NCBI GenBank assembly: GCA_944324905.1
Contig: CALUYB010000002.1
Coordinates: forward strand, 17,834 to 81,833
Direction of reading: 5' to 3'
Length of the DNA stretch: 64,000 nt
Source of the DNA: Candidatus Gastranaerophilales bacterium
Lineage (GTDB): Bacteria > Cyanobacteriota > Vampirovibrionia > Gastranaerophilales > Gastranaerophilaceae
Under the pieces are notes generated by a model. It did not search any database, was not told the origin of the DNA, and worked only from the letters and a program-made list of their open reading frames with translations. Below are positions 24,435 through 55,509 of the stretch, piece after piece. The number at the start of each line of letters is the position of its first letter. Position 1 is the stretch's first letter. The translations under genes were made by a program, and so were the position numbers.

Positions 24435-24472
24435 AATTGCGCCCAGAGTTTAGGCTTTGGGCGCAATTTTTT
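24435..24472. terminator. Bidirectional rho-independent terminator between the ferredoxin gene and the convergent membrane-protein gene
   Basis: AATTGCGCCCA (24435-24445) pairs with TGGGCGCAATT (24458-24468), followed by TTTTTT. The stop codon of the minus-strand gene lies in the loop. Confidence 0.75.
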
Positions 24473-35031: not shown

Positions 35032-35737
35032 AATGCTTAAATTAAATAAACGCGTCATCCTGAACTTGTTTCAGGATCTTATTAGTAATTGTCTAGAGCA
35101 TAAAGTGGATAAGACCCTGAAATAAATTCAGGATGACAGGTTGAGTGTTCAGGGTGACAGGTTGAGTGTTCAGGGTGACAGGTTGGCAATTCAGGGTGAC
35201 CTATTTACTCGAAAACCCCCTCTTTTTTAATGCTTAAATTAAATAAACGCGTCATCCTGAACTTGTTTCAGGATCTTATTAGTAATTGTCTAGAGCATAA
35301 AGTGGATAAGACCCTGAAATAAATTCAGGGTGATAAGTTGGGTGTTCATGGTGACAGGTTGATAATTCAGGGTGACAGGTTGGGTGTTCAGGGCGTCAGG
35401 TTGTAATTCAGGGTGACCTATTTACTCGAAAACCCCTCTTTTTTAATGCTTAAATTACATAAACGCGTCATCCTGAACTTGTTTCAGGATCTTATTAGTA
35501 ATTGTCTAGAGCATAAAGTGGATAAGACCCTGAAATAAATTCAGGGTGACAGGTTGGGTGTTCAGTGTTACAGGTTGGCAATTCAGGGTGACAAGTTGGT
35601 AATTCAGGGTGACAGGTTGGGTGTTCAGTGTTACAGGTTGGCAATTCAGGGTGACAGGTTGGGTGTTCAGTGTTACAGGTTGGCAATTCAGGGTGACATA
35701 TTTACTTAAAAACCCCTCTTTTCTAATGCTTGAATTC
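35021..35737. repeat. Nested tandem-repeat array: three units (197, 216 and 280 bp), each with two palindromes and a run of 21-bp direct repeats
   Basis: Unit boundaries CCCTCTTTTTTAATGCTTAAATTA occur at 35021, 35218 and 35434, plus a degenerate fourth boundary at 35714. There are 17 phased copies of TTCAGGGTGACAGGTTGNNNN, starting at 35127, 35324 and 35540. Palindromes are ATCCTGAA-N5-TTCAGGAT and ACCCTGAA-N5-TTCAGGGT. Confidence 0.95.
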
Positions 35738-35789
35738 TATTCCCCACTTATGTAATTTATTTTTTACCCCTTTATCTTATTATCTGATA

Positions 35790-37052
35790 ATGCAAAGAAT
35801 TATCAGAAACACTCTTTTAAATTATCTGCCCAAAGATTTGATAACCGAGCAAAATGTTAATCCGTTGCGAATTTATGAGCTAAATAATGCTGATATTAAA
35901 AATGGTAAAATAATTTACCTCATGCAAAGAGAAATCCGCCCTTTTGACAATTTCGCACTTCAATTTTGTCAGGAAATGGCTGCTAAATTGGGCATGCCAT
36001 ATAAAATTATTTGTCCGAAATTTTCTTGCGATTATATGCCAAAAGAAAATTTTATAAACAATCAAATTGAGCATGTTAAAGGTGAATTTTTAAAAAAGAA
36101 TATCGACTTTAGTCTTTTTATTGGCAACAGTTCTGAGCTTTTTAAATATTTGCAAAACGAACAAATTGCAATGTTGATTGTTGATTTTAGTCCTATTTTA
36201 AATCGAGATAAGCTAAAAAAATTTCCATTTAAAGTATATGAGGTTGACTCGCATAATATAATTCCTGCACGCTTTTTGTCAGATAAACAAGAGTATGGCG
36301 CATCTACAATCAGAAGAAAAATCTATAAAAATATTTACCCGTTTTTTACAAAATATAAAGAAAAATCACCTATATCACCCTACTTGCAGGATTTTATAGA
36401 AAATAAACTGCCATATTATGCAAAATACCGAAATGACCCGACAAAAAATGTTCAGTCAGGATTATCAAAATATTTAAATCTGGGCTTTATTTCCTCTCAA
36501 AGAGTTGCTCTTGAAGTTTTTAGTGCAGATGTAAGTGATGAAAACAAGGAGGCTTTTTTTGAAGAATTAATTGTACAAATGAGTCTTGCAGACAACTTTT
36601 GTCTTTATTGCAGTGATTTTAAAAGCTTAAAATGTATACAAAATTGGGCAAAAAATACAATTTTAGAACATAAAAATGATATTAGGGAGTATATTTACTC
36701 AACTAACGCCCTTGAGGAGGCTAAAACTCACGACAAGCTTTGGAATGCAACGCAAAAACAACTTGTGTGCGATGGTGTAATCCATGGGTATTTAAGAATG
36801 TATTGGGCAAAGCAAATTGCAAAGTGGACAAAAACCGCTCAAGATGCACTTGATGTTGCAATTTATTTGAATGATAAATATGCATACGACTCACCCTCAT
36901 CAAACGGTTATGCAGGAATTTTGTGGTCGATTGGTGCTTTGCATGATAGAGCTTTTGTAAATCGCTATTTGACAGGCAAAATCAGAACCATGACATATAA
37001 ATCTATAAGCAAGAAATTTGATATAAATAAATACATTGATAAATACCAATAA
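35790..37052 (+). CDS. phr: Class II deoxyribodipyrimidine (CPD) photolyase
   Basis: IYLMQREIRPFDNFALQF matches the class II YWMxRDxRxxDNWAL block. The C-terminus has LWNATQ...HGYLRMYWAKQIAKWT. The ATG at 35790 is preferred over the TTG at 35730, which lies in the repeat boundary. Confidence 0.85.
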   Translation: MQRIIRNTLLNYLPKDLITEQNVNPLRIYELNNADIKNGKIIYLMQREIRPFDNFALQFCQEMAAKLGMPYKIICPKFSCDYMPKENFINNQIEHVKGEFLKKNIDFSLFIGNSSELFKYLQNEQIAMLIVDFSPILNRDKLKKFPFKVYEVDSHNIIPARFLSDKQEYGASTIRRKIYKNIYPFFTKYKEKSPISPYLQDFIENKLPYYAKYRNDPTKNVQSGLSKYLNLGFISSQRVALEVFSADVSDENKEAFFEELIVQMSLADNFCLYCSDFKSLKCIQNWAKNTILEHKNDIREYIYSTNALEEAKTHDKLWNATQKQLVCDGVIHGYLRMYWAKQIAKWTKTAQDALDVAIYLNDKYAYDSPSSNGYAGILWSIGALHDRAFVNRYLTGKIRTMTYKSISKKFDINKYIDKYQ

Positions 37053-37143: not shown

Positions 37144-37680
37144 ATGAAAAAAGTTCTTATTCTGGCAACCAGCCCAAGGAAAAATGGTAATTCAACCTTG
37201 CTTGCGCAAGAATTTCAAAAGGGCGTGCAAGAAGCTGGAAATTCTGCAGAAATTATTTATCTTTGCGAAAAAAATATAAACTTCTGTAAGGGTTGCCTAA
37301 GTTGTATAAGGACTAAAAAATGCATTATTGACGATGATATGGGAGAAATTTTAGAAAAAATTAAAACTTCTGATGTTATTGTTTTTGCGACTCCAATTTA
37401 TTATTATGAAATGTCAGGGCAAATGAAAACCCTTATAGATAGGACAAATCCATTGTTTGAGTCAGATTACCCCTTTAGAGATATTTATCTTTTAGCAACT
37501 GCCGCCGATAGTGGCGAATACTGCGCAGATGGGGCAATTAAAGGACTTGAAGGTTGGATAGCATGTTTTAGTAAAACAAATTTAAAAGGTGTCATAAAAG
37601 GCTTTGGTGTAACTTCAGCAGGGGACATAAAGGGTCATAAAGCCCTTATTGAAGCATACAATGCAGGAAAAAATGTTTAA
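37144..37680 (+). CDS. Flavodoxin-fold FMN reductase / iron-sulfur flavoprotein-like protein
   Basis: MKKVLILATSPRKNGNS N-terminus, Cys cluster CEKNINFCKGCLSC, and PIYYYEMSGQMKTLIDR. AAGGAGGA ribosome-binding site. Confidence 0.8.
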   Translation: MKKVLILATSPRKNGNSTLLAQEFQKGVQEAGNSAEIIYLCEKNINFCKGCLSCIRTKKCIIDDDMGEILEKIKTSDVIVFATPIYYYEMSGQMKTLIDRTNPLFESDYPFRDIYLLATAADSGEYCADGAIKGLEGWIACFSKTNLKGVIKGFGVTSAGDIKGHKALIEAYNAGKNV

Positions 37681-39038: not shown

Positions 39039-40241
39039 TTATAACACAATTTGCGTACCAACAATTAACTTATGTGAATCAGGTTTTGCGTCATTTTGGC
39101 AATAAACATAATTAAAAATTAATTTTAAAGCCTGTCCTTTTAAATAGTAATTTACGCCTGCACTATATTCTCTTTGGTTGTTGTCGCGTTTTGTTTTATC
39201 GGGATTAAACTGGTCGTAACGTGCAAGGAGTTCTATTTTTTTGGTTAGATGATAACCAAGTGTTGCATAAAAACCTTCTGTACCCTTGTTTGTTGGTCCG
39301 CTGCCACCGTTAGAGCCGTCAGAGTTTGCATATTCTGCTCTTGCCCAGAATTTTTTATATTCATAGCTAAGTGCAGCTCCCGTCATAAAGTAATCAATAG
39401 AGTGTCTTCTGCCTGCTACAATACCGCCCCCTGCAACGATTTTACCCCATTTGCCATCTGTTTTACCCAACGGTTTAATATTTACCCAGCCGTCAAATTC
39501 TAGCCCTGGGAAGAATTCTTGAAAGAAAGTATCTGAGCTGTAACCGCCAAAATCGTAATCTACAAGGGAGTAATCACCCCTGACTCTCAGACCAAATTTT
39601 CTTACATTAGCGAGATTTCTTGAAATTTGCGAACGTGCTACAAAAGGTAATGTATATGGAGATTGCGCACCTTCATAACCAACTCCGGGGCGAGAGTTAC
39701 CTATTAAAATATTGTGATGAGGTATTCTGTTTGTTTCAAAATAAGCATCCTGTATTAACTGTTGAAAAAAGCCATGGGCGTGGGTCGGAGTCGGGTCTAG
39801 CATTAAACGAAAACCTTCTTTTCTGCCTCTGAATTTTCCGTCAAATATGATGTTTATGAGTGCCATATTAAACTTTGTGTCAGTATCTGCGTTTTCGCTC
39901 ATTTGTGTTGTAATGTTACCTTGCAGAGCAACCCAAGTATGAAAACTCTCTAGCGGTCCCTTATCAAAAGTCATAGTAAGTTGTTTTTTAAGCAACTGCG
40001 AAGGGACATCCGTACGCTCAATTTGCAATTCCCACACATCTTTTGGAGCGCTCATTAAATTTGACAAAAAAGTATCTTTTTCTTTTTGGATATCTTGTTC
40101 AAATTCTTCTTTTGTCTGTCCTGTTATATTTTCTATAAAATCGCCATCAGGATTTTCTTCAAGCTTAATTTCTTCCTCAATGGCAAAAACTTGAGGAACA
40201 AATATAAAAAGAAAAATAATGCTCAATAAAATCTTTTTCAT
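39039..40241 (-). CDS. Outer-membrane beta-barrel porin (OprO/P-like)
   Basis: Signal peptide MKKILLSIIFLFIFVPQVFA. The C-terminal half shows alternating aromatic/hydrophilic beta-strand patterns (YSAGVNYYLKGQALKLIFNYVY). No Shine-Dalgarno sequence is evident. Confidence 0.6.
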   Translation of the reverse strand: MKKILLSIIFLFIFVPQVFAIEEEIKLEENPDGDFIENITGQTKEEFEQDIQKEKDTFLSNLMSAPKDVWELQIERTDVPSQLLKKQLTMTFDKGPLESFHTWVALQGNITTQMSENADTDTKFNMALINIIFDGKFRGRKEGFRLMLDPTPTHAHGFFQQLIQDAYFETNRIPHHNILIGNSRPGVGYEGAQSPYTLPFVARSQISRNLANVRKFGLRVRGDYSLVDYDFGGYSSDTFFQEFFPGLEFDGWVNIKPLGKTDGKWGKIVAGGGIVAGRRHSIDYFMTGAALSYEYKKFWARAEYANSDGSNGGSGPTNKGTEGFYATLGYHLTKKIELLARYDQFNPDKTKRDNNQREYSAGVNYYLKGQALKLIFNYVYCQNDAKPDSHKLIVGTQIVL

Positions 40242-40282: not shown

Positions 40283-41155
40283 TTATTTCATGTCCTTGCC
40301 GTGGTCATCTCTTAAATATGCAGTCCAGAATAGTAAAACCACAAACACAAAAGCACCAACCATATTACCTAAAGTAACAGGCAACAAGTTGCCTAAAAGG
40401 AATGATTTAATGTTTAAAGTTGCAAGTTGATCAGGAGTTAAGCCTGAAGCAAGCGCAACAGCAGGAGTTGCTTTTAAGAATAAGCCATTAGAGATAAAGT
40501 ACATATTTGCAATACTGTGCTCGTAACCTGAAGCAACGAATGTTGTAATTGGGAAGAAAATTGCAAATATTTTACCTATAACGTGGCGAGAGGATGAAGC
40601 CATCCAAATAGCAAGACATACAAGCCAGTTACATAAAATACCTCTTGTAAATGCTTCAACAAATGTTAAGTTTACTTTTGTATAAGCAGTTGTTAAACCT
40701 AAAACACCTAATGCTTCATGGGAGTTATGTGAGCAGCCTGTAAAGTATATAATTGTAGCTAAAAGTACCGAGCCGACAAAGTTACCAATATAAACAATCG
40801 TCCAGTTTCTAAGTAATTTTGCAAGGCTTGTTTTCTTTTCAATTACTGAAAAAGTCATCATAACGTTACCTGTAAAAAGTTCTGCACCTGTCAGGACAAC
40901 CATCATAAGACCTGTAGCAAATGTCATCGCTCCGATTAACTTTGCAAAACCCCAGCTAACAGCTTCCGTTCCTGTCATAACATTAAGGGAAACTTGTGCA
41001 CCAAAGGCAATTAGAGCGCCTGCTGCTATTGCAAGTACAAAAGTTTTTGATTTTCTAAAGTTTGCTTTTGCAGGCATGACTTTGTCTGCAATTTCATGCG
41101 CCACATGATTTGGCGAGATACAGTCTTTTGTATCTAAATTTTGTTGTGTTTCCAT
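40283..41155 (-). CDS. Formate/nitrite transporter (FNT) family channel, FocA-like
   Basis: 290 aa with six TM segments. N-terminal KSKTFVLAIAAGALIAFGA and the FNT block ASGYEHSIANMYF. Confidence 0.85.
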   Translation of the reverse strand: METQQNLDTKDCISPNHVAHEIADKVMPAKANFRKSKTFVLAIAAGALIAFGAQVSLNVMTGTEAVSWGFAKLIGAMTFATGLMMVVLTGAELFTGNVMMTFSVIEKKTSLAKLLRNWTIVYIGNFVGSVLLATIIYFTGCSHNSHEALGVLGLTTAYTKVNLTFVEAFTRGILCNWLVCLAIWMASSSRHVIGKIFAIFFPITTFVASGYEHSIANMYFISNGLFLKATPAVALASGLTPDQLATLNIKSFLLGNLLPVTLGNMVGAFVFVVLLFWTAYLRDDHGKDMK

Positions 41156-41388: not shown

Positions 41389-43395
41389 ATGTACAGCCGA
41401 ATTTTTGGGATGGAAGTAATGAATAATTTTTTTATAGGAATTTTATTTTTTATACTGAGCGGGTTTATTGCAAGTATTTTTCGAAAAGAAAATAAAATTA
41501 AAATACTGAGCATTTTGTGTTTTATAGGTTCTTTATTCTGTTTAACTCCGGCAGTAAGTGTGCTTTTTAGCGGTCAAAATTTAATCACAGAGTGCAATTT
41601 TAATCCCATTTTTGGGACAATAAACTTTACACTTGATCCACTAAGTGCTTTTTTTGTAGTTGTAATAAGTGTAATGAGCCTTATGGGGGTAATTTATTCA
41701 AAGGGTTATTTAAAACCATATCTTGATAAAGTAAAAAATATTAATTCTCATTTAATATTTTTACCTTTACTTATAGCTTCAATGTTACTTGTGGTAAGTT
41801 GTCAAAATGCTTTTGCATTTTTAATTTTTTGGGAAATAATGTCCTTAAGCTCATTTTTCCTTGTTATATTTGAATCAGACAAAAAGGACGTCTTGAAAGC
41901 CGGAATAAAATACCTTGTTTTCATGCACATTTCTGTAATTTTTATAATAATTGCTTTTGCGCTTTGTGCAATAAATGCAGGCGGATATGACTTTAGTTTA
42001 TTTTCTCAAGTTTTAAGAGAAAATTCACATTTGGCAAATCTAGTTTTTGCTTTTGCATTCATTGGTTTTGGCACAAAGGCAGGTTTTGTACCTTTTCACA
42101 ACTGGTTGCCAGATGCACACCCTGCAGCACCAAGCCATGTCAGCGCAATTATGTCAGGAGTTATGATAAAAACAGGTATTTATGGAATTTTAAGAGTTCT
42201 ATCTTTTTATGCAACACCATCTAAAGCACTTGCATTTGCTGTTCTTATAATTTCCGTTATATCGGCACTTTATGGGGTTTTATATGCCATAACCCAGCAT
42301 GACCTAAAAAGACTTTTGGCTTACCACTCTATTGAAAATATAGGTATAATAGGGATTGGCACAGGAGTAGGTATGTTAGGTCTTGCATACGGACAAATAC
42401 AAATTGCTCTTATTGGTTTTGCAGGTGCAATTTTACACATATTAAACCACTCAATATTCAAAGAACTTTTATTCTTGAGCGCAGGCAGCGTTTATATTAA
42501 AACACATACTCGTGATATTGAAATCTTAGGCGGGTTAATAAAATCAATGCCATTTAGTGCGGTGTTATTTCTAATAGGCTCTGTCGCAATTTGTGGTCTA
42601 CCTCCATTTAACGGCTTTATCAGTGAATTTTTAATATACTTTTCAATGTTAAAATGTCTGGCAGTTAAAGATTTCTTTGTGCTTATTGCACTGTTATTTT
42701 CCATTGCAGGATTGGCATTGGTTGGTACAATGGCTGTCTTGTGCTTTACAAAAGCATTCAGCATAATATTTTTAGGAATGCCAAGAAGTGAAAATGCAAA
42801 AGCACCGACATCGGATTGCGAAAAGTCAATGCTTATGCCTATGGGATTTTTAGCAATTTTAACGCTGTTAATAGGCATTTTCCCTCAGTATGTATTTGAT
42901 GTTGTGCTAAAACCGGCTGCAACTGTTGCAAATACAAGCATAATGCCAATCGGAACCTGTGCAGATTTAATGCAGACAATTTCACTGTGCGCATTTGGCT
43001 TTATTGCTTTTGTAATTATACTTTTACTGTTTAAACTTAAATTTTCAGGTAAAGTTCAAATGCACGACACCTGGGGTTGCGGTTATGATAGAGCAAATAA
43101 TCGCATGCAATACAGTGCATCCTCCTATGCAAGCCCGTTTTTATCGATGTTAAGACCTTTATTTAAAAAGATTTTCGACATTGAAAAACCAAAACAACTT
43201 TTCCCGAAATCTGCACACTTTAGCTTGCATATAGATGATATTGAAGAAGCTTATGTTATTAATCCGCTTGTTAAATTTGACGAATGGTTCTTGTCAAAAT
43301 TTGAAGCTATACAAAGTGGTAATATTCAAAGTTACATAAAATACGGGCTAATATTTTTAGTTTTAATAATAATCGGAAGTTTGTTTATAGGATAA
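41389..43395 (+). CDS. Antiporter-like membrane subunit (HyfB/HycC/NuoL family) of a group-4 hydrogenase-related complex
   Basis: 668 aa, polytopic. Carries the WLPDAHPAAPSHVSA and LAYHSIENIG blocks of the Mrp/NuoL family. The start is uncertain (41389, 41410 or 41419), because the predicted promoter would leave almost no leader for 41389. Confidence 0.85.
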   Translation: MYSRIFGMEVMNNFFIGILFFILSGFIASIFRKENKIKILSILCFIGSLFCLTPAVSVLFSGQNLITECNFNPIFGTINFTLDPLSAFFVVVISVMSLMGVIYSKGYLKPYLDKVKNINSHLIFLPLLIASMLLVVSCQNAFAFLIFWEIMSLSSFFLVIFESDKKDVLKAGIKYLVFMHISVIFIIIAFALCAINAGGYDFSLFSQVLRENSHLANLVFAFAFIGFGTKAGFVPFHNWLPDAHPAAPSHVSAIMSGVMIKTGIYGILRVLSFYATPSKALAFAVLIISVISALYGVLYAITQHDLKRLLAYHSIENIGIIGIGTGVGMLGLAYGQIQIALIGFAGAILHILNHSIFKELLFLSAGSVYIKTHTRDIEILGGLIKSMPFSAVLFLIGSVAICGLPPFNGFISEFLIYFSMLKCLAVKDFFVLIALLFSIAGLALVGTMAVLCFTKAFSIIFLGMPRSENAKAPTSDCEKSMLMPMGFLAILTLLIGIFPQYVFDVVLKPAATVANTSIMPIGTCADLMQTISLCAFGFIAFVIILLLFKLKFSGKVQMHDTWGCGYDRANNRMQYSASSYASPFLSMLRPLFKKIFDIEKPKQLFPKSAHFSLHIDDIEEAYVINPLVKFDEWFLSKFEAIQSGNIQSYIKYGLIFLVLIIIGSLFIG

Positions 43396-43401
43396 GATAA
43401 A

Positions 43402-44319
43402 ATGGCAATTAAAATTTTAAACATATTAATAGTTTTATTTGTTCCGTTTTTAATGCTTGGTGTTATTAAAAAAACAAAAGCATTTTGGGGCGGAAGATAC
43501 GGTGCATCAGTATTTCAGCCGTTGTATGATTTTATAAAGTTAATGAAAAAAGATTTTGTGATAAGTAAAACTACAAGCGGTGTCTTTAGAATTACGCCTG
43601 TTATAGTCATTGCAAGTGTGCTTTTTGCAGCTTTATTTGTACCTTTGGCTTCATCAAGCGCAATAATTAACATAGAGGCCGGTTTTATAGTTTTTGCTTA
43701 TATTTTAAGCTTTTCAAAATTTTTCTCACTAATTTCCGCTATGGATACAGGCAGCAGTTTTGAAGGTATGGGAGCATCCCGTGAAGCTTGTTTTACAACA
43801 ATTGTTGAACCTGCATTTTTTATGCTCTTAGCCTCTATTATGGCACTGAGCGGAAATTATACTTTTGATTCTCTTGGAAAAATCATTGAAAACGCAGGCG
43901 GATATGGAATTTTAATCTGTATTTTTGCAATACTTGTACTTTTTATAATGATTTTAACTGAAGGTTCAAGGGTTCCTGTTGATGACCCTGCAACACACCT
44001 TGAATTAACTATGATTCATGAAGTTATGATTTTAGATAACTCGGCATCTGATTTAGCTCTTATCAGTTGGGCAAACGGTATAAAAATGCTATTGTTATCA
44101 TCTTTAATTGCTGCAATTGTTATTCCTCAGGGTATTGGTACGGGACTTTCAATTTGTGCTTACCTTGGTTTAATGTTTTTAATTTCCGTTATAATCGGAA
44201 CTATTGAGTCCGCAACAGCAAGAATAAGGATGTCGCACGTTTTTGAATTTGTTTTTATAATGAGTTCATTTGCGCTTATTGTTCTGTCTTTGGTTGCTGC
44301 AAGGATGTTTGGAGGCTAA
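43402..44319 (+). CDS. NuoH/HyfC/HycD-like membrane subunit
   Basis: 305 aa, polytopic. EGSRVPVDDPATHLELTMIHE resembles the conserved HycD/NuoH loop. Confidence 0.8.
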   Translation: MAIKILNILIVLFVPFLMLGVIKKTKAFWGGRYGASVFQPLYDFIKLMKKDFVISKTTSGVFRITPVIVIASVLFAALFVPLASSSAIINIEAGFIVFAYILSFSKFFSLISAMDTGSSFEGMGASREACFTTIVEPAFFMLLASIMALSGNYTFDSLGKIIENAGGYGILICIFAILVLFIMILTEGSRVPVDDPATHLELTMIHEVMILDNSASDLALISWANGIKMLLLSSLIAAIVIPQGIGTGLSICAYLGLMFLISVIIGTIESATARIRMSHVFEFVFIMSSFALIVLSLVAARMFGG

Positions 44320-44322
44320 TTT

Positions 44323-44976
44323 ATGGAAAACGGTTTTATAATACTTTTTGGTCTTACAATGTTGTATTTGGCAGCAACAAGCAGGATTGTATCTCACGTT
44401 AGATTGCTTGTTTTGCAAGGAATTCTACTGTTCTTAATTTGCGCTTGCCACTTTGAACACCAAAGTGCGCTTAATATAACTTTTTTAACGGTTGAAACAT
44501 TAATTGTTAAAACAATTGTAATTCCCTGGTTTTTATTTAAAGTATTGAAAAAAACAAAAGCCAACAGGGATGTTGGTGCAAATATACCGCATTTTTACTG
44601 TCTTGTAAGCGCAAGTATAATTTTACTTTGCGGATTTTTGCTACCCAACCACTTTTTTAATTCAGATACGATGAAAATGATTTCTCCTTTGTATTTCGGG
44701 GTATCGCTTGCAACAATTATCATAAGCTTATGGCTGATTACAATTAAGCATAAAATTATCTCTAACGTAATTGAGTTTATTACAATGGAAAACGGTATTT
44801 TCTTACTGTCGTTATCTGTTGCAAAAGAAATGCCTGTCCTTGTAAATATGGGTGTTCTGCTAGATGTATTTATAGCAATTTATATTCTTGGATTATTTAT
44901 AAATGAAATTAACAGAGAATTTAAAGATTTAGAAGTTTCTAACCTGTCAGATTTAAAGGATTACAGCAATGATTAA
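44323..44976 (+). CDS. HyfE-like small membrane subunit (NuoK-related)
   Basis: 217 aa (HyfE-like size), multi-TM; position between the HyfC-like and HyfF-like genes. Confidence 0.7.
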   Translation: MENGFIILFGLTMLYLAATSRIVSHVRLLVLQGILLFLICACHFEHQSALNITFLTVETLIVKTIVIPWFLFKVLKKTKANRDVGANIPHFYCLVSASIILLCGFLLPNHFFNSDTMKMISPLYFGVSLATIIISLWLITIKHKIISNVIEFITMENGIFLLSLSVAKEMPVLVNMGVLLDVFIAIYILGLFINEINREFKDLEVSNLSDLKDYSND

Positions 44977-46399
44977 CGCAATATTAATATTTCCGATAGT
45001 TGCCTGCATTTTAATGGCAATAATTAAAAAAAGAGTATTTGACTGTGCAATGGTTAATTTATATGCCATTTTACACGTGGTTTCTACTGTGCTTTTGGCA
45101 ATGGGAATAGGCAAAGAGGGCAATATTCCGTATTTTACCGTTGATAATACAAATCTTATATTTTTAATAATTTTGTCCTTGGTATTTTTAATGGTGGCAA
45201 TATACAACAACGGATATGTAAAAACACTTGAATATCCCGATAAAAAAATAGGTCATTATTCTTTTATGATAATGGTTTTTGTTCTGGCAATGACAGGAAC
45301 TGTTTTATCAAGTAATTTAGGTATTGCGTGGATTTTTGTTGAAGCAACGACACTATCAAGTGCGTATTTAATTTATTTCAATAAAACCAAACACTCAATA
45401 GAAGCGGCTTGGAAATATGTTTTCATCTGCTCAATTGGTATTGCGCTTGCTTTTGTAGGTATAATATTTTTAAATATTGCTCAAGGTGATATAAATACTC
45501 TGGATTTTGCACAATTGTATAAACACGCAAATACATTTGACCCGTTCTGGCTCAAGATGTCTTTTGTATTTATGCTTTTTGGTTTTGGTACAAAAATGGG
45601 GCTTGCACCGGTTCACTTTTGGTTGCCGGACGCTCACTCTGAAGCACCATCACCAATATCAGCACTTTTGTCTGCTACTTTATTGAACTCAGCATTTTTG
45701 GTAATTGTAAGAGTATTTAAAGTTTTAGATATTGCGCAATGCGACCAGTGGGCAAGAATAATGCTTTTAATTTGCGGTTTTGTATCACTATTTGTAACTG
45801 CAGTTTTTGTATACCATATAAAAAATTACAAAAGAATGCTTGCTTATTCCTCAATTGAAAATATGGGAATTTTGGCAATAGGTACAGCTTTGGGTGGCGC
45901 TGCTTTATATGCGGTGATTTTACATTTAATCGGACACTCACTTGCAAAAGCATCATTCTTTTTAACATCAGGCAATGTGCTAGAGCTTTTTGGCACAAAA
46001 AGAATTAAATCAGTCAGCGGTATTATGGAGGCTGACAAGAAAACAGGTTGGCTATGGTTGTTTTCATTCCTTGCGATTTGCGCATTCCCAACATCTGTTT
46101 TATTTATAAGCGAGTTTTTAATGGTAAAAACCATGATATGTGATGGGCACTATATATTGTGCGCATTATTCGTGCTGCTATTAACAATAATACTTTGGGG
46201 TATTGCAAAAGTTACGCTAAAAATGACTTTTGGAAAATTAAGCGAGGATAAAGCGCAAGCTGTAATGGAAAACAAAACTAAAGTTACGTTTTGCAAGTTT
46301 GCACCGCAATTTATAATGCTTTTAATAGTATTTACATTAGGTATTTATGTTCCGCCGTTTTTAAATAATATTATAAACTGCGCTATGGCAGGATTTTAG
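44969..46399 (+). CDS. Antiporter-like membrane subunit (HyfF/NuoM-N family)
   Basis: 476 aa. WLPDAHSEAPSPISA and LAYSSIENMG blocks. Overlaps the upstream gene by 8 nt. Confidence 0.85.
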   Translation: MINAILIFPIVACILMAIIKKRVFDCAMVNLYAILHVVSTVLLAMGIGKEGNIPYFTVDNTNLIFLIILSLVFLMVAIYNNGYVKTLEYPDKKIGHYSFMIMVFVLAMTGTVLSSNLGIAWIFVEATTLSSAYLIYFNKTKHSIEAAWKYVFICSIGIALAFVGIIFLNIAQGDINTLDFAQLYKHANTFDPFWLKMSFVFMLFGFGTKMGLAPVHFWLPDAHSEAPSPISALLSATLLNSAFLVIVRVFKVLDIAQCDQWARIMLLICGFVSLFVTAVFVYHIKNYKRMLAYSSIENMGILAIGTALGGAALYAVILHLIGHSLAKASFFLTSGNVLELFGTKRIKSVSGIMEADKKTGWLWLFSFLAICAFPTSVLFISEFLMVKTMICDGHYILCALFVLLLTIILWGIAKVTLKMTFGKLSEDKAQAVMENKTKVTFCKFAPQFIMLLIVFTLGIYVPPFLNNIINCAMAGF

Positions 46400-46410
46400 G
46401 GGATAATAAA

Positions 46411-47874
46411 ATGAACTGGATTAAAACAAAAAATAATACAAAAATTAATCTTAATGAAATTCCTACTCTTAAAATTAATGAATTAAGAGAGGAGATAATA
46501 AGCCTAAATAAAAGACCAATCGGCTTTTTTGGAAAAGACTGGGGCTATGGCACAACAAGACTTTTTGTAGTTCTTGCAGATGATGAAAATGGTGACTTGT
46601 ATGTTTCATCGGCACTTTTTGGGCAAAATGAAAAAGAATATGAATCGTTAACTCAAGTTCTGCCTGCGTTTCATATATTTGAAAGAGAATTTTATGAGCA
46701 ATTTGGGATAAAACCACTTAATCACCCTTGGTTAAAACCATTAAGAAAAAACCAAAAAAATTATCAATTTTTTGAAATGGAAGGCGAAGAAGTCCACCAA
46801 GTTGCAGTTGGGCCAATTCACGCGGGTGTTATTGAACCTGGACACTTTAGGTTTATGTGCAATGGTGAAACGGTTTATCACCTTGAAATCATGCTTGGTT
46901 ATCAAAATAGGGGTGTTGAAGATTTGATGGTTAAACATCCTACAAATCAGCTTGCAGAGTCTGTTTGTGGTGATAGTGTAATTGCGCACAACCTTGCATA
47001 TTCAAAGGTTATGGAGGTATTGAAAGATATTAAGGTTTCAAAAAGAGCGCAATTAATAAGAACTCTTGCGCTTGAAATGGAACGAGCTGCAATACATATT
47101 GGTGACTTAGGCGCAATAGCAGGTGATATCGCCTATCTTATGGGTGCATCAGTCTTTGGTGCAACAAGGACTCTTGTAATAAACACTATGCTTGAGTTTT
47201 CGGGAAGTCGTTTTGGTAGAGGACTTGTAACTGTTGGCGGTGTTAATTTTGATATAGATAATGAAAAAATCGAACGTGCTGTAAAAACACTTACAAAAGT
47301 TGAAAAAGATGTTGAACGTATGGTTAAAACTATGCTTAAAAATACATCTGTTATGTCAAGGTTAGAAAAAACAGGCGTTGTAAGCCAAGAAAAAGCTCGT
47401 GAAATAGGACTTGTCGGCATGGCAGCACGTGCTTGCGGAATTATTTTAGATTCTCGTTTTGACTTTGCTGATGAATGTTTTAAAAATCTTGCCCTACCAA
47501 GAAAAATATTTAAAGGCAAAGGCGATGTTAACGCAAGATTTCAACTGAGATATCAGGAAACAATGGAATCCTTATCCATTGCAAAAAGGATACTTGAAAT
47601 GCTTAAAAACGGCTACAGGGAGGAAGTTTTAACAAAGAACGAAAATTTACTTTGTGCTGATTCAATGGCAATTTCAATAACAGAGGGCTGGAGAGGCGAA
47701 GTAGTTCATATTGCATTAACGGATATGAACGGTACGCTTTCAAGATATAAAATTAAAGACCCGTCGTTTAACAACTGGTATGGTCTGGCACTTGCCGTCA
47801 GAAACAACGGAGTGTCGGATTTTCCATTGTGCAACAAGAGTTTTAACCTATCATACTGCGGGAATGATTTATAA
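46411..47874 (+). CDS. NuoC-NuoD / HycE-HyfG-like 'large subunit' lacking both canonical NiFe-binding CxxC motifs
   Basis: VGPIHAGVIEPGHFRF is the hallmark of group-4 large subunits and NuoD. The N-terminal motif position reads SVCGDSVIAH and the C-terminus reads FPLCNKSFNLSYCGNDL-stop. There is no CxxC anywhere in the 487 aa. Confidence 0.85.
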   Translation: MNWIKTKNNTKINLNEIPTLKINELREEIISLNKRPIGFFGKDWGYGTTRLFVVLADDENGDLYVSSALFGQNEKEYESLTQVLPAFHIFEREFYEQFGIKPLNHPWLKPLRKNQKNYQFFEMEGEEVHQVAVGPIHAGVIEPGHFRFMCNGETVYHLEIMLGYQNRGVEDLMVKHPTNQLAESVCGDSVIAHNLAYSKVMEVLKDIKVSKRAQLIRTLALEMERAAIHIGDLGAIAGDIAYLMGASVFGATRTLVINTMLEFSGSRFGRGLVTVGGVNFDIDNEKIERAVKTLTKVEKDVERMVKTMLKNTSVMSRLEKTGVVSQEKAREIGLVGMAARACGIILDSRFDFADECFKNLALPRKIFKGKGDVNARFQLRYQETMESLSIAKRILEMLKNGYREEVLTKNENLLCADSMAISITEGWRGEVVHIALTDMNGTLSRYKIKDPSFNNWYGLALAVRNNGVSDFPLCNKSFNLSYCGNDL

Positions 47875-47885
47875 GGAAGAAAATT

Positions 47886-48641
47886 ATGTTTGATACACTA
47901 AAATCAAGAATTTACCAAGGGAATCAATTTATAAAAGATATTCAAAATGCGCCTATACGCTCTCAGTTCAGAGGCTTGCCAAAGTTATGCAATTCTGATT
48001 GTAACAACTGCAGTGCATGTCTTAATATTTGTCCGACAGGCGCACTAAAATTAAATCCACTATCAATTGATATGGGAAAATGCACTTTTTGCGGTGCTTG
48101 TAAAAACGTATGCAAAACAGGCGCAATTGATTTTTCAAATTTTTACAAACTTTCTGCAACAAGTAGAGATAAGCTTGTTATAACAGAAAATATGACAGAA
48201 GAAGAATTTTCAAAAGTTGCAATTGAAGTTAAAAAAGAAATTAAAAAAGTTTTTGGCAGGTCTTTAAAGTTAAGACAAGTATCCGCTGCAGGGTGCAATG
48301 GTTGCGAAATGGAGCTTAACGCTTGTTCTAACGTAAACTTTGATATGGGCAGGTTTGGCATAGATTTTGTTGCCTCCCCTCGCCATGCGGATGGGCTTGT
48401 GATTACTGGGCCAATTTCAAAAAATATGGCATATGCACTTGAGGATTGTTATAAATCAACGCCAGACCCTAAAGTTGTTATTCTCTGCGGTGCTTGTGCA
48501 ATTTCAGGTGGAGTTTTTCAAGATAGCAGCGAACTTAACAGGGAATTTCTGGAAAAATATCCTATAGATTTGTATATTGCGGGTTGTCCGGTACATCCGC
48601 TGACTTTCATAAACGGTGTTTTAGGTTTAATTGGAAGATAA
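47886..48641 (+). CDS. Fusion of a 2x[4Fe-4S] ferredoxin-like domain (HycF/HyfH/NuoI-like) to a NuoB/HycG/HyfI-like small subunit
   Basis: The N-terminal domain carries CNNCSACLNICP and CTFCGACKNVC. The C-terminal domain carries GCNGCEME, LCGACAISGG and GCPVHP, the four ligands of the proximal cluster. Confidence 0.85.
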   Translation: MFDTLKSRIYQGNQFIKDIQNAPIRSQFRGLPKLCNSDCNNCSACLNICPTGALKLNPLSIDMGKCTFCGACKNVCKTGAIDFSNFYKLSATSRDKLVITENMTEEEFSKVAIEVKKEIKKVFGRSLKLRQVSAAGCNGCEMELNACSNVNFDMGRFGIDFVASPRHADGLVITGPISKNMAYALEDCYKSTPDPKVVILCGACAISGGVFQDSSELNREFLEKYPIDLYIAGCPVHPLTFINGVLGLIGR

Positions 48642-48645
48642 TTAA

Positions 48646-48678
48646 AATCCCGCTTAATTAGCGGGATTTAATTTTTAT
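48646..48678. terminator. Bidirectional terminator between the hydrogenase-like operon and metY
   Basis: AAATCCCGCT TAATT AGCGGGATTT (48646-48670) followed by a T-rich run. Confidence 0.75.
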
Positions 48679-49940: not shown

Positions 49941-50028
49941 AATAAATTACCTCAGCTTTATTTTAAAATAATACCATGTCCATATTTTTTGTGTTATTAA
50001 ATAAATACACATATTGAAAGGATGCAAG

Positions 50029-50649
50029 ATGAAAGTATTACTGATTAATTCAAGTGCACATGAAAAAGGCTGTACATACAGGGCTTTAAGCGAGGTTGCA
50101 AAATCGCTCAACAAAGAAGGCATTGAAACAGAAATTGTGCAGTTAAAAGACCCTATTAATGACTGTATCGGCTGTGGTGCCTGCAAAAAAACAGGCGAGT
50201 GTGTAATTAAAAATGATATGGTTAATGATTTTGTAAAAAAGGCAAAAGACTTTGATGGCTTTGTTTTTGGCTCACCTGTGTACTACGCCCACCCGTCAGG
50301 CAGACTTTTATCTTTTATGGATAGAATTTTTTACTCCGGCTCAAGTGCTTTTGCGTATAAACCCGCAGCAGCAGTCGTAAGCGCAAGGCGTGGAGGCACA
50401 ACAGCGTCATTAGATGTTATTATGAAACATTTTATGATTAACAAAATGCCTGTAATTTCTTCAAGTTATTGGAATATGGTGCATGGAAATAAGCCGGAGC
50501 AAGTGGAAGAAGATTTAGAAGGTTTACAAACAATGCGTATGTTAGGGCAAAATATGGCTTGGATTTTAAAATGCATTGAAGCGGGTAAAAACAATGGAAT
50601 TAGTGTACCTGTACCTGAAGAAAAAATTTGGACAAATTTTATTAGATAG
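50029..50649 (+). CDS. Flavodoxin-fold NAD(P)H-dependent FMN reductase / iron-sulfur flavoprotein-like protein
   Basis: MKVLLINSSAHEKGCT, the CIGCGACKKTGEC cysteine cluster, and GSPVYYAHPSG. The ATG at 50029 follows AAAGGA. Confidence 0.8.
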   Translation: MKVLLINSSAHEKGCTYRALSEVAKSLNKEGIETEIVQLKDPINDCIGCGACKKTGECVIKNDMVNDFVKKAKDFDGFVFGSPVYYAHPSGRLLSFMDRIFYSGSSAFAYKPAAAVVSARRGGTTASLDVIMKHFMINKMPVISSSYWNMVHGNKPEQVEEDLEGLQTMRMLGQNMAWILKCIEAGKNNGISVPVPEEKIWTNFIR

Positions 50650-51572: not shown

Positions 51573-52310
51573 TTAAAAGTTTTTTAATTTCTCATCTATT
51601 TCTTTTTTAGAAAGTGATTTTTTGCACAAATACCAATCATAACATGTTATATTTTGCGCACGTTTTTCTTCATCGCTCATTTGATAAGCTTTTTTGTCAG
51701 GTGGCACAATAACATCATCTCCTTCTTGCCAATTGGCAGGCGTTGCAACCTCAAAAGCTTTTGTCACTTGCAGTGCACTAACCAGTCTTAAAATTTCATC
51801 TAAATTTCTACCAATTGTTTGCGGATAGTAAATAATGGCGTGAATATTGCCTCTCGGGCAAATGACAAAAACGGCACGTACTGTTTTTGTATCGTTTTGC
51901 AACATTCCGTATTTGCGCGCGATTTCGCCATTTTTATCATCAATTAAGGGAAAGGTAATTTGTGTACCCATTTTCTCACTCATTGATAAAATCCAACTTT
52001 TGTGAGATTCAAGGTTATCAACAGATAAGCCTATTAATTCTGTATTAATTTCTTTAAATTTATCGTAGTATCTTTGAAATGCCATAAGCTCAGTTGTACA
52101 AACAGGCGTAAAATCTGCAGGATGAGAAAATAAAATAACCCATTTACCATCATAATCGCAAGGAAAATTTACTGTCCCATTTGTTGTGTCTGCGCTAAAA
52201 AATGGCGCTCTATCACCAATTAGGGGCATTCTGTACATATTTTTAGCAGCCTTAACCCCAAGGACAGTTGCTCCTATTGCTCCTGCTGCAAGTAATATTT
52301 TTTTAAACAT
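51573..52310 (-). CDS. 1-Cys peroxiredoxin (Prx6-like) with an N-terminal signal/anchor sequence
   Basis: FSHPADFTPVCTTE peroxidatic-Cys motif, preceded by MFKKILLAAGAIGATVLGVKAAKN. Confidence 0.85.
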   Translation of the reverse strand: MFKKILLAAGAIGATVLGVKAAKNMYRMPLIGDRAPFFSADTTNGTVNFPCDYDGKWVILFSHPADFTPVCTTELMAFQRYYDKFKEINTELIGLSVDNLESHKSWILSMSEKMGTQITFPLIDDKNGEIARKYGMLQNDTKTVRAVFVICPRGNIHAIIYYPQTIGRNLDEILRLVSALQVTKAFEVATPANWQEGDDVIVPPDKKAYQMSDEEKRAQNITCYDWYLCKKSLSKKEIDEKLKNF

Positions 52311-52467
52311 TTTTACCTCTTTCTTTTTTTGAATTTATAAATCTTATTGGTAAAAATAACATCCCCCTAAAGGAGAGATATTAAAATTTGTAAAAAATGC
52401 TAAGAATTTTTATTTTTTTAGCAAAAAATATTTTTCAAGGAATTTGTACAAGAAAACGAGGATAAAA

Positions 52468-55400
52468 ATGAGAATAGATAAAATTTCAAGTGCATACGGA
52501 CAAAATTATTTAAACAAATTAAACAAAAAAAGCGGGTACAAATTTCAAACCTACCCAGTGATTAATGATTTACCTAATGCAAATAGTGCTTATTTTAATA
52601 TAAATTTTTCAGGGTCTTACGAAAAAGCAAACCTTAAAAAGTTTTCAGATAATCAGGAAAAATTTACTTTAATTGCAAATAAAACATGGAATAAAACCAG
52701 ATACATAGCAAAAAAATTTAATCATTCTCAAATAACTTCAGAGCACTTATATGTTGTGGTTTTGAACGATTTAATTAAATATATTGATAAATTAAATTCC
52801 GGTGTAAGACATGAAGAAGAAAAACAATATTCCGCACCTGTTACTTTAGAGGCATTTTTTGGTAGGCGAGAAATTTTTGAGGATAAAGAAGCAAGAACAA
52901 AATTAAAGGAAATATTGGAAAAATATCTGAAAGAAGGATTGAGGGATTTAAAAAATAATGACAGAATTCCAAAAGCAGGCATATTCGAGCCAAGACTTTC
53001 ACCAAGATTGGCGGCTGATTTAAACAAGGGCTTTGAAGTGAAAGAATCTACTTATGAGACAGGCTTATTTAGTGATGATGTTTTCTTGCTTGCTTTGCTT
53101 GCAGGTAGTGACAATAAAATTGTAAAAAAATTCCGCGAAATGGATTTTGAAGTACAAAAGGCAACAATGGTGGAAGATAATTCAGTAAACCAAAAAAATC
53201 ACTTGCCATTTTATGACAATCTTGCAGATAAACTTTGGAAAAACATTGACCTTGGAAATGATATGTATATTACATATGAGGGTGAAAATAAAGAGTCTTC
53301 AAAACATTTGATTTCGAGTTTTACAAATTTAATTAATAAACCAAATCAAAAATACAATAATTTAAATGCTCAAAATACAAAAATTGTGGTGTTTAACCAA
53401 TATGGGATATATTCTGCAATTGAAAATTATGTTGAAGAAGCAAAAAAACATCCCGAAACAACATACGTGTTAATGTATGACTTTGCAGATGTTGCAAAGA
53501 GTAATGCTTTGGCGGAGGAAAGAGCTGAAATTGGGTTAAATGAAAATGAGTTAAAACTTTTGGAAAATTCACAAGTCCCAAATGTTAGAATGGTGATGAT
53601 TTCAAACAAAGATGCCTATTATGCAAACGCTCAGCAAAGTCCAATTATTAAAAAGAGCTTAGCTCATTATGGTGTGCTTTCAATTCCTATGATTAACTCA
53701 AGCGATGCAAAAGAAATACTGGCAAGCGAAAATGGTAAAAAATACATAGAAAAAAGAATAAATAAAGAAATCGATTTGCAAGCGATAAGTCAAGTTATCG
53801 ATTTTACGAATAAAACAGAGGGTTATTATCCTGAAAAAGCGCTAAGTTATGTCGATAAAATGGCATCTTATTATATCGACAAAAAACAACTAACGTTTGA
53901 AGACGTTCAAAGTTATGAAAAAGAGATTGGAGACATTCAACAAAAAAGCGACAGTTCTCAGAGTGATTTTAAAATAACTTTTAATACAGGCAAAAATCTT
54001 GATGATATTATTGGCAATCCTATGACAAAAGCAGAGGCTAAAAGTATCGTAAACCAGATTTTAATGAAAAGAAAGGGTGGAACAAAAGGGTTTATAACAT
54101 TTTTAAATAATGGGAGTTCATACGGTGGCGGCAGAAGGCACACTGCACAATGTATCGCAGGGGAAGCTCAAATACCTATGATTACAGTAAATGCACGTGA
54201 TTTCGCCCTAAAAGATATTGATGCGCTTAGCATGAATGCTAATTTGTCGGAAATAAAAATCAAGAAGCTTTTTGATATGGCAAAGGCTCAAGCAAGTGTT
54301 AATAAAAATAAAACAGCAATGATATTTATTGAAAACTTTGATAACTTTGCATCTAATCCACTGTATGGGGTTTCATCAATATATGAACAAAAAGCATTTT
54401 CGCAACTGCTTGAAGAAATGGATAAATTAAGAGATCAAGACGATGTAAACATTGTGGTTATAGGTTCTCTTAACTATCCGAATTTGCTTGATGAAAATGT
54501 TATGAAACCATATAAATTTTTAGATCAAATAATTGTTTATTCTCCACAGGATAATCGCGATAGAGAAGATGTCCTAAGATATTATGCAAATAAAAACGGT
54601 TTAAAAATAGGTGAAACGCCTGAAGAAAAAGATAAAATATTAAAAAATGCCTCAGAAACAACTATGGGCTTTAGTGTGGTAGATATAATATATTTGCTTG
54701 AAAAAGCTGAACAAGTTTCAAAAGAAAGAGGCAAGGAATTTATCGATAAAGCTGATATTACAGAGGCCTTTTTGCAAACAACAACGGGCAGACCATCTTC
54801 AAGAGAATATTCTTCACACAGAAATGCTATTGTTGCAAAACATGAATGCGGACATGCCCTAACTCTTCAAGTTATGCATGATATAGCAAAAAAAGAAAAT
54901 AAACCTTGGCATTTGCCTGATAAGATTAATTTTATTACTCTTGATCCAAGAGGAAATTATGGTGGTGCAATGTATCCAAAGGATTCTGAAAATGAAGAAT
55001 ATAGTTTTGAAAAAGTGTTTTCAGAAATGGTTTGCGACTTTGGTGGTTATTCGTCCGAAAAACGTTTTTACAATATGCAGGGTAGCTGGGGTATAACTCA
55101 AGATATGTCAATGGCAACCGAAGTTGCAAGGCTTGCAGTTGAGAAAATGGGCATGGGTGCTAAAACCGGAAGAATTTCAATCGATTCAAATCCGTATATG
55201 CAAACATTTATTTCAGACAGCATGAAAGATAAAATCAATTCAGATATTGAAGTGATGCTTAAAAATGCAGAGTATGTTTCTAATGAAATTGTAAGCACTT
55301 ATGCTGATTTTATTGAGCAATTTGGCGAAAAATATCAAGACAAAGTAGGAACAGGCGAGTGCATAATTATGTCTGATGAATTTCAAGAACAGCTTGAGAA

Positions 55401-55509
55401 CTGGAAAAATTCTTTAAGTTGGGATAAAAAACAAAAACTTTTAGAGTTGGAAAATAAAATTTTAGATGTAATTGAAAAAACTAAAAAAGGTGAGCTTGTA
55501 AAACAATAA
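52468..55509 (+). CDS. Soluble FtsH-like protein: Clp_N-like repeats, degenerate AAA+ module and M41-type HExxH peptidase domain
   Basis: ATG at 52468 after GAGGA. ITSEHLYVVVLND and DDVFLLALLAG are Clp_N-like. The Walker A position reads NNGSSYGGGRRHT and Walker B reads MIFIENFDNF. HECGH lies at 54841-54855, followed by LDPRGNYGG and GITQDMSMATEVA, which parallel FtsH IPRGxALG and GASNDIxxAT. Confidence 0.75.
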   Translation: MRIDKISSAYGQNYLNKLNKKSGYKFQTYPVINDLPNANSAYFNINFSGSYEKANLKKFSDNQEKFTLIANKTWNKTRYIAKKFNHSQITSEHLYVVVLNDLIKYIDKLNSGVRHEEEKQYSAPVTLEAFFGRREIFEDKEARTKLKEILEKYLKEGLRDLKNNDRIPKAGIFEPRLSPRLAADLNKGFEVKESTYETGLFSDDVFLLALLAGSDNKIVKKFREMDFEVQKATMVEDNSVNQKNHLPFYDNLADKLWKNIDLGNDMYITYEGENKESSKHLISSFTNLINKPNQKYNNLNAQNTKIVVFNQYGIYSAIENYVEEAKKHPETTYVLMYDFADVAKSNALAEERAEIGLNENELKLLENSQVPNVRMVMISNKDAYYANAQQSPIIKKSLAHYGVLSIPMINSSDAKEILASENGKKYIEKRINKEIDLQAISQVIDFTNKTEGYYPEKALSYVDKMASYYIDKKQLTFEDVQSYEKEIGDIQQKSDSSQSDFKITFNTGKNLDDIIGNPMTKAEAKSIVNQILMKRKGGTKGFITFLNNGSSYGGGRRHTAQCIAGEAQIPMITVNARDFALKDIDALSMNANLSEIKIKKLFDMAKAQASVNKNKTAMIFIENFDNFASNPLYGVSSIYEQKAFSQLLEEMDKLRDQDDVNIVVIGSLNYPNLLDENVMKPYKFLDQIIVYSPQDNRDREDVLRYYANKNGLKIGETPEEKDKILKNASETTMGFSVVDIIYLLEKAEQVSKERGKEFIDKADITEAFLQTTTGRPSSREYSSHRNAIVAKHECGHALTLQVMHDIAKKENKPWHLPDKINFITLDPRGNYGGAMYPKDSENEEYSFEKVFSEMVCDFGGYSSEKRFYNMQGSWGITQDMSMATEVARLAVEKMGMGAKTGRISIDSNPYMQTFISDSMKDKINSDIEVMLKNAEYVSNEIVSTYADFIEQFGEKYQDKVGTGECIIMSDEFQEQLENWKNSLSWDKKQKLLELENKILDVIEKTKKGELVKQ

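Follow-up and report, generated by a model that had tools for sequence, protein, structure and literature searches.

The ehr operon

The window that we analysed is a stretch of 64 kb from a gut member of the Gastranaerophilales (Melainabacteria/Vampirovibrionia; contig CALUYB010000002.1), and the subject of this report is one of its genes, ehrL (46411-47874, forward strand). The gene encodes a protein of 487 residues plus a stop codon, in which NuoC- and NuoD-type parts are fused into a large subunit that lacks the four cysteines of a [NiFe] site. It is the fifth gene of a tight operon of six co-oriented genes (41389-48641), in which neighbouring genes are separated by 3-11 nt, except for one pair with an overlap of 8 nt. 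We assign the operon to the Ehr (energy-converting hydrogenase-related) complexes, and suggest that it probably neither makes nor uses H2.

The other five genes of the operon, all on the forward strand, encode the remaining parts of a membrane complex. The ehrA gene (41389-43395) encodes a HyfB/NuoL-like antiporter-type subunit of 668 residues (Proton_antipo_M, 2e-56; NCBIfam hydrogenase 4 subunit B, 3e-176, under the curated cutoff), and ehrB (43402-44319) a HyfC/NuoH-like membrane anchor of 305 residues (Pfam NADHdh, 3e-32). A HyfE-like small membrane subunit of 217 residues is encoded by ehrC (44323-44976; NCBIfam hydrogenase 4 membrane subunit (HyfE), 3e-18, under the cutoff), the end of which makes the 8-nt overlap with the start of ehrD (44969-46399), a gene for a HyfF/NuoN-like antiporter-type subunit of 476 residues (Proton_antipo_M, 3e-48; hydrogenase 4 subunit F, 4e-95, under the cutoff). 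Behind ehrL, the ehrS gene (47886-48641) encodes 251 residues in which a HyfH/NuoI-like domain for two [4Fe-4S] clusters is fused to a HyfI/NuoB-like small subunit, as recognised by Pfam Fer4 and Oxidored_q6 and by alignment to HycF/HyfH/NuoI and HycG/HyfI/NuoB. The operon is closed by a bidirectional terminator-like hairpin (48645-48669; its stem of 10 bp includes 5 GC pairs, and each strand has a T-rich tail), which is a consensus match only.

On the reverse strand, divergent from the operon, there is a gene for a focA-type formate channel (40283-41155; Pfam Form_Nir_trans, 1e-75; NCBIfam FocA, 2e-77). It is paired with an outer-membrane porin-like gene of 400 residues on the same strand (39039-40241; Pfam Porin_O_P and OMP_b-brl), which we regard as a neighbour and not as a core part of the system. 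No hyp or hycI gene was found among the open reading frames (ORFs) of at least 100 residues in the window, almost all of which were annotated, the few that were skipped being antisense and nested in annotated genes.

Loss of the NiFe ligands in EhrL

The translation of ehrL carries the beta1-beta2 loop motif VGPIHAGVIEPGHFRF at residues 133-148 (46807-46854, forward strand), which includes E142 and is invariant in 134 homologues. An earlier note on this DNA, made by a model from the letters alone, had named this motif as the hallmark of group-4 hydrogenases and NuoD, and it is indeed present. At the first ligand motif (L1), AESVCGDSVIAH stands at the position of DRVCGICGFAH in HycE, and the C-terminus SFNLSYCGNDL-stop stands at that of SLDPCYSCTDR, the second ligand motif (L2). 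We refer to these two places as the remodelled sites, namely E183-S-V-C186-G-D188-S189-V-I-A-H193 (46957-46989, forward strand) and N475-K-S-F-N-L-S481-Y-C483-G484-N-D-L487-stop (47833-47874, forward strand). The group-4 pattern R-x-C-G-x-C-x-x-x-H is replaced by S-V-C-G-D-S-V-I-A-H in EhrL, with Ser184 for the Arg and Ser189 for the second Cys, and D-P-C-x-x-C is replaced by N-L-S-Y-C-G. The codons concerned lie at 46966-46968 (C186), 46975-46977 (S189) and 47839-47874 (S477 to the stop). EhrL has seven cysteines (residues 150, 186, 342, 356, 415, 474 and 483), and their spacing is such that no CxxC occurs in the protein. Both NiFe-ligating CxxC pairs are broken, as the earlier note had read them, correctly down to the codons.

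The register of these motifs was examined in several ways. In a phmmer run against all chains of the PDB, the L1 segment of EhrL, 'laesvCgdSviaH', was aligned with 'laermCgiCsfsH' of MbhL and 'lsdrvCgiCgfaH' of HycE. At the C-terminus, S-F-N-L-S-Y-C-G-N-D-L was placed under S-L-D-P-C-Y-S-C-T-D-R of HycE both by phmmer and in a MAFFT alignment that took in HycE, HyfG and NuoCD of Escherichia coli (NC_000913), and the ligand positions of L2 are therefore Ser481 and Gly484. The four ligand positions of EhrL are occupied by C186, Ser189, Ser481 and Gly484, so that a Cys is left at the first of them alone; C483 is one residue ahead of the second ligand position of L2 and out of register. A misreading of the register was ruled out, because the phmmer alignments to the PDB, the MAFFT alignment with the E. 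coli proteins and an alignment of 134 family sequences all agreed. With its NiFe ligands replaced, EhrL falls outside the conventional H2-evolving [NiFe] enzymes, as the earlier note had inferred.

L487 of EhrL is aligned with R537 of HycE, which we take to be the residue after which HycI cleaves, and EhrL therefore has no maturation extension. This agrees with the earlier observation that the protein stops at about the cleavage position of HycE. The missing extension is not peculiar to EhrL, since its closest CxxC-bearing relatives also stop at C-Y-x-C-x-D-R.

The best PDB matches of EhrL were MbhL (6cfw_L, 5e-39) and HycE (7z0s_E, 3e-37), while those to Nqo4 (4e-20) and MbsL (7e-13) were far weaker. 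An AlphaFold2 model built from an alignment of 101 sequences had a mean predicted local distance difference test (pLDDT) value of 96.6 and a predicted template modelling (pTM) score of 0.95. When the model was used in a fold search, HycE (7z0s_E) was the best match, with a template modelling (TM) score of 0.89 and a root-mean-square deviation of 2.5 A, followed by NuoCD of E. coli.

The ratio of nonsynonymous to synonymous substitution rates (dN/dS) of ehrL, measured against six orthologues, was 0.04-0.08, which reflects strong purifying selection. A pseudogene or an assembly error was ruled out by this ratio and by the invariance of S189, S481 and G484 in the 134 close homologues.

Conservation of the remodelled site

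In the 134 close homologues, the stretches 133-150 and 469-482 of EhrL were also invariant or almost so. The two cysteines left beside the former ligand motifs behaved differently: C186 was replaced by Val, Asn or Thr in 25 of these sequences, and C483 by Ser, Ala or Thr in 84. We then considered the wider family through an exhaustive search of representatives, which returned 4805 clusters (50% identity) at E <= 1e-3 and, with the stricter cutoff of E <= 1e-30, 569 clusters. Across 109 representative clusters without CxxC, the L1 region followed the signature E183(89%)-x-x-[A47/S41/C15]-G187(94%)-D188(94%)-[S51/T38], and the C-terminus followed N475-K-S477-F-N-L480-S481(93%)-Y482-[C44/S30/A24]-G484(94%)-x-D486-L487(86%)-stop. 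Position 186 was Cys in 15 and position 483 in 44 of the 109 clusters, and the two did not co-occur across the family (8 with both, 36 and 13 with one only, 60 with neither). Seven relatives in the same match list retained the ligands, reading E-R-x-C-G-x-C-x-x-x-H at L1 and N-K-S-F-[E/N]-L-C-Y-[S/A]-C-x-D-R-stop at the C-terminus.

The NiFe cysteines have thus given way to particular residues that are themselves conserved, among them a newly acquired acidic one, D188. The leftover cysteines are incidental: C186 and C483 vary while the replacement residues are kept. The earlier note had taken one Cys near each site as a sign that another metal might be bound there, an idea that does not survive this comparison.

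A different pair of cysteines is better conserved. C150 (46858-46860) was found in 134 of 134 close homologues and C474 (47830-47832) in 133 of 134, and among 115 family representatives 54 had both, 36 had neither and 25 were mixed. The NiFe-type relatives have Val or Ala at position 150 and Ile or Val at position 474. C150 and C474 may be a contact pair; however, their co-occurrence should be taken as no more than a lead, since the sequences compared are related and hence not independent.

Fe-S clusters, proton route and pump residues

The ferredoxin-type Cys motifs of EhrS (47988-48113, forward strand) can be divided into the ligands of a distal cluster (C39, C42, C45 and C76) and those of a medial one (C49, C66, C69 and C72), an assignment made by analogy with MbsN (PMC8165549). 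The medial ligands were invariant in 76 of 76 orthologues of EhrS. All distal ligands are present in the EhrS of the window, but between about a quarter and 40% of the orthologues lacked them, the share varying by ligand (seen in loci L015-L080), and by this pattern the distal cluster is dispensable. The ligands of the proximal [4Fe-4S] cluster, C137-N-G-C140, C204 and C234 (48294-48587, forward strand), were again invariant in all 76. Their motif GCNGCE has the CxxC spacing of hydrogenases, as in CNGC of HycG and CNAC of HyfI, in contrast to CC of NuoB.

E142 of EhrL was aligned by phmmer with E21 of MbhL, a residue with a role in proton delivery (PMC7684303), and it was 93% conserved in the family. 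In the membrane, EhrA keeps E149, K230, K261, H350, H354, K358 and E413, as in HyfB, and EhrD keeps E125, K209, H319, H323, K327 and E382, as in HyfF. The Glu of transmembrane helix 5, the Lys of helix 7, the His/His/Lys of helix 11 and the Glu of helix 12 form a pattern that is identical to that of HyfB and HyfF.

Synteny among relatives

When the GTDB species were scanned, each represented by one genome, 510 stretches were found to encode relatives of EhrL, and the locus counts given here rest on the best 80 of these 510 (68-97% identity). Where a lineage was named, these loci were mostly from metagenome-assembled genomes of Gastranaerophilales/Melainabacteria from animal and human guts; the others were labelled 'uncultured bacterium' or stood under different bin names. 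The six ehr genes were found in the same order in 73-80 of the 80 loci, the gaps being due to contig ends. The focA gene lay directly upstream of the operon in 35 of the 63 loci with enough flank and was absent from the other neighbourhoods (44%), while the focA-porin pair was present in 41 of 80. Genes for coenzyme A (CoA) transferases recurred in 12-13 of the 80.

When all ORFs of the 80 loci were clustered, no conserved redox partner emerged, and only the six ehr genes, the focA-porin pair and the CoA-transferase genes were recurrent. Genes for formate dehydrogenase (FDH), HycB/HyfA and NuoE/F were absent from both the operon and its flanks in all 80 loci, and the flanks contained no hypA-F or hycI gene. 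Two distant carriers, P0140 (48% identity by phmmer) and P0177 (42%), have the same six genes in the same order as stand-alone operons in unrelated genomic contexts, and no redox partner adjoins the operon in either. In the carrier P0140, a CGGC-domain protein of 110 residues is encoded directly after ehrS (L084, 12260-12592; L085; L086); no CGGC-domain gene follows ehrS in the window.

Comparison with known systems

In a crude neighbour-joining (NJ) tree based on BLOSUM62 and rooted on NuoCD, EhrL was placed deep in a clade of sequences without CxxC, with the CxxC-bearing relatives near the base of this clade and HycE and HyfG of E. coli outside it, as expected for the Ehr affiliation that the earlier note had offered. 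Besides this placement, the large subunit is homologous to those of group-4 hydrogenases and to NuoD while its NiFe cysteines are gone, and its operon combines NuoL-, NuoH-, HyfE- and NuoM/N-like subunits with a large and a small subunit, both of which are features of Ehr. The Ehr family was reportedly described by Coppi in 2005 and by Marreiros et al. in 2013. EhrA-B-C-D-L-S of Geobacter sulfurreducens (GSU0739-45) form the same six-gene membrane complex, with a large subunit lacking the NiFe cysteines, and Ehr complexes, like the operon of the window, have no maturation genes adjacent. We found no family-defining difference between them and the window operon. Details of the lineage of the window are the N-terminal domain of EhrS for two [4Fe-4S] clusters, with all clusters intact, and the upstream position of focA and the porin gene, which about half the relatives share. 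Ehr has been placed close to group 4f (PMC10284858), and HydDB leaves it out as not metabolising H2 (PMC5037454). By its predicted features, EhrL is an Ehr large subunit, and it lacks the defining features of group-4 hydrogenases, of the membrane-bound sulfane reductase (MBS) and of complex I.

The closest comparison with an intact enzyme is offered by the seven CxxC-bearing relatives (P0206, P0239, P0247, P0252, P0257, P0259 and P0284), for which a 4f-like label comes from the literature. They resemble EhrL in gene order (L087, L090) and in the beta1-beta2 loop, with 32-36% identity, and share with it the extension-free C-terminal frame N-K-S-F-x-L-x-Y-x-x-x-D-[RL]-stop. However, they keep E-R-x-C-G-x-C and C-Y-x-C where EhrL has E-S-V-C-G-D-S and S-Y-C-G and no NiFe site.

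Formate hydrogenlyase (FHL) and hydrogenase-4 of E. coli are also similar: HycE is the best structural match, the membrane subunits come closest to HyfB (35%) and HyfF (34%), and a formate channel gene stands beside the operon just as hyf ends with focB. Unlike these systems, the window operon has no HyfA/HycB, HyfD, HyfJ/HycH, HycI or FdhF, the homologues of HyfH and HyfI are fused, and EhrL has neither the NiFe cysteines nor the C-terminal extension.

MBS of Pyrococcus furiosus (Mbx, 6u8y) is likewise derived from a hydrogenase, depends on ferredoxin and has an incomplete set of NiFe cysteines, and it demonstrates that such complexes can work with an acceptor other than protons. It differs in other respects. 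MBS has 13 subunits with an Mrp-type sodium module (MbsA-G), whereas the window has six Hyf-type genes between focA and the terminator. In MbsJ the proximal motif is shortened, with three Cys and one open iron (PMC7684303), whereas EhrS has four Cys in a CNGC-type motif, although the actual coordination is predicted from sequence. The Glu equivalent to E21 of MbhL is absent from MBS and retained in EhrL as E142. The earlier note had called the protein 'Ehr/Mbs-like', and only the first part of this name can be kept: motif loss, the six-gene operon and the NJ placement agree with Ehr, but the missing Mrp-type module, the four Cys of GCNGCE and the weak match to MbsL compared with MbhL and HycE speak against MBS.

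NuoD (Nqo4) of complex I has the same fold and has also lost the four NiFe cysteines, and NuoC and NuoD are fused in EhrL as they are in NuoCD of E. coli. However, the quinone-site His, H38 of Nqo4, corresponds to Ile141 in a HMMER alignment against 2fug_4, and this Ile is 92% conserved. The position of Y87 corresponds to Ser189 in the HMMER alignment, which is less certain, since the register differs in MAFFT; no Tyr was conserved at residues 186-190 of EhrL across the family clusters. EhrS has C-N-G-C where NuoB of E. coli has the tandem Cys-Cys of cluster N2, and the operon contains no homologues of NuoA, J, K, E, F or G.

Discussion

We propose that EhrL is the large subunit of an Ehr complex with a Hyf/group-4f-like ancestry, which would neither make nor use H2 because its NiFe site has been lost, and which would instead serve as a ferredoxin-linked and ion-translocating oxidoreductase. 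We would give this reading a probability of roughly 0.6. Reduced ferredoxin would dock on the NuoI-like N-terminal domain of EhrS, and its electrons would be relayed by two or three [4Fe-4S] clusters to the proximal cluster, which is of the hydrogenase type, and from it to a proton-consuming acceptor in the remodelled pocket of EhrL, around D188, S189, S481 and E142. The reaction would drive the translocation of H+ or Na+ via EhrA and EhrD, or would be reversed at the cost of the membrane potential. With respect to the acceptor, three candidates are disfavoured by the evidence: protons at a NiFe site, a quinone site of the complex I type and an open-iron cluster of the MBS type. Gut Melainabacteria genomes with the same complex were reported to be without quinones, cytochromes, Rnf and FDH (PMC3787301).

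Several points weigh against this reading. The NJ tree is crude, in that it has no support values, its representatives are unlabelled and it holds no reference labels for Ehr or group 4f. The distal cluster is degenerate in many orthologues, and the entry point of the electrons is therefore uncertain. Moreover, the donor, the acceptor, the direction and the ion of Ehr are all inferred.

Going one step further, the pocket may be a genuine catalytic site, lined by D188, Ser/Thr189 and S481, supplied with protons via E142 and with electrons by the proximal cluster, and acting on an acceptor that is neither a proton nor a quinone. We offer this tentatively and consider it possible, though somewhat unlikely. 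If it were true, the complex would provide a respiratory chain made of one enzyme and driven by ferredoxin for gut fermenters that have no quinones or cytochromes, and the focA-porin pair beside the operon might connect this chain with the handling of formate.

The complex could also be operated in reverse, so that a proton or sodium motive force pushes electrons onto ferredoxin for use by FeFe hydrogenase and in biosynthesis. Group-4 enzymes such as Ech are reversible, and in the window both the pump residues and the Fe-S wire are intact. This direction was proposed by Di Rienzi et al. in 2013, who reported the genomes to be without Rnf (PMC3787301). However, a donor for the reverse reaction is no better defined than the acceptor of the forward one, and the sequence gives no sign of direction. 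Sugar fermenters, moreover, usually hold a surplus of reduced ferredoxin and not a shortage. We regard reverse operation as unlikely.

Alternatively, the peripheral arm might be a redox-inert relic with a structural or regulatory role, in which case the complex would work as a cation/proton antiporter of the Mrp/Hyf type, with a gating that might depend on whether its clusters are reduced or oxidised. The intact antiporter-like subunits, the loss of the distal cluster in many orthologues and the absence of a nearby acceptor or partner gene from the 80 loci and the distant carriers would all be in keeping with such a role. It is made distinctly doubtful by the proximal and medial ligands, none of which varied in 76 orthologues, by the 86-94% conservation of the replacement residues of the pocket in the 109 clusters, by the retained Glu equivalent to E21 of MbhL and by the low dN/dS of ehrL (0.04-0.08).

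A link to formate has been considered as well, with Ehr as the membrane part of a system that oxidises or exports formate, either an FDH-Ehr complex or a vestigial FHL-2. An FDH-Ehr complex was hypothesised previously (PMC6349859), and Ehr subunits of Geobacter were more abundant on formate (PMC7894505). The divergent focA adjoining the operon in 35 of 63 loci, and the focB at the end of hyf in E. coli, point in the same direction. Nevertheless, 44% of the neighbourhoods have no focA, none of the 80 loci encodes FDH, HycB/HyfA or NuoE/F within the operon or its flanks, and gut Melainabacteria were reported without FDH complexes (PMC3787301), all of which makes this explanation very unlikely. 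That the complex is still a hydrogenase, or that C186 and C483 hold another metal, is hardly credible even though EhrL of the window has one Cys in or beside each former ligand motif, because these cysteines vary within the order and do not co-occur, C483 is out of register, hyp and hycI genes were absent from the window ORFs of at least 100 residues and the two retained Cys of MBS are not catalytic (PMC7684303).

The loss of the NiFe cysteines in Ehr of the Gastranaerophilales is already known. The loss of the motif in the large subunit of gut Melainabacteria, together with the six-subunit complex, was published in 2013 by Di Rienzi et al. (PMC3787301), and Ehr complexes in Melainabacteria were reported in 2019 by Matheus Carnevali et al. 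(PMC6349859). Little is therefore added here as a discovery, and our additions are incremental and may in part already be in print. They are the family-wide replacement signature of D188, S/T189, S481, G484 and L487, the finding that the leftover cysteines are not conserved, the predicted dispensability of the distal cluster, the focA-porin synteny, and the hydrogenase-type proximal motif and E21-equivalent Glu, which by comparison of sequences set Ehr apart from both MBS and complex I.

Ehr complexes are widespread, and they hold an evolutionary position between membrane hydrogenases and complex I. Their function is a real and long-standing question, although the locus in the window makes it no more testable than before. 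The Gastranaerophilales may be useful for its study, in that their reported lack of quinones, cytochromes, Rnf and FDH narrows the list of acceptors. In annotation, ehr genes should be kept out of any tally of [NiFe] hydrogenases, and the 'NiFe hydrogenases' reported earlier from gut Gastranaerophilales (PMC4040986) may be the Ehr complex.

Other genes of the window

The rest of the window is occupied by housekeeping genes, including Mfd, SMC/ScpAB, lipid A genes, flagellin, rubrerythrin and ABC transporters. Several proteins had no Pfam match at E <= 1e-5, namely those encoded at 24450-25823 (reverse strand, 457 residues), 25886-26992 (reverse strand, 368 residues) and 35730-37052 (forward strand, 440 residues), and the last of these had no detectable counterpart in the DNA flanking the operon in the 80 related loci. 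A protein of 1178 residues (2665-6201, forward strand) has a double zinc ribbon at its N-terminus and also contains an AAA_16 (STAND-like) ATPase domain, its remainder being unannotated. Another, of 1021 residues (52444-55509, forward strand), has its AAA and Peptidase_M41 (FtsH-type) domains confined to the C-terminal half (residues 563-961), preceded by about 550 N-terminal residues without a Pfam match, and is far longer than the usual FtsH.

The ehr region is flanked by two genes of the FMN_red family (NADPH-dependent FMN reductase/flavodoxin-like), at 37144-37680 and 50014-50649, both on the forward strand, and a 1-Cys peroxiredoxin is encoded at 51573-52310 on the reverse strand. Both FMN_red genes and the peroxiredoxin gene were kept only in the closest relatives, in 5-7 of the 80 loci.

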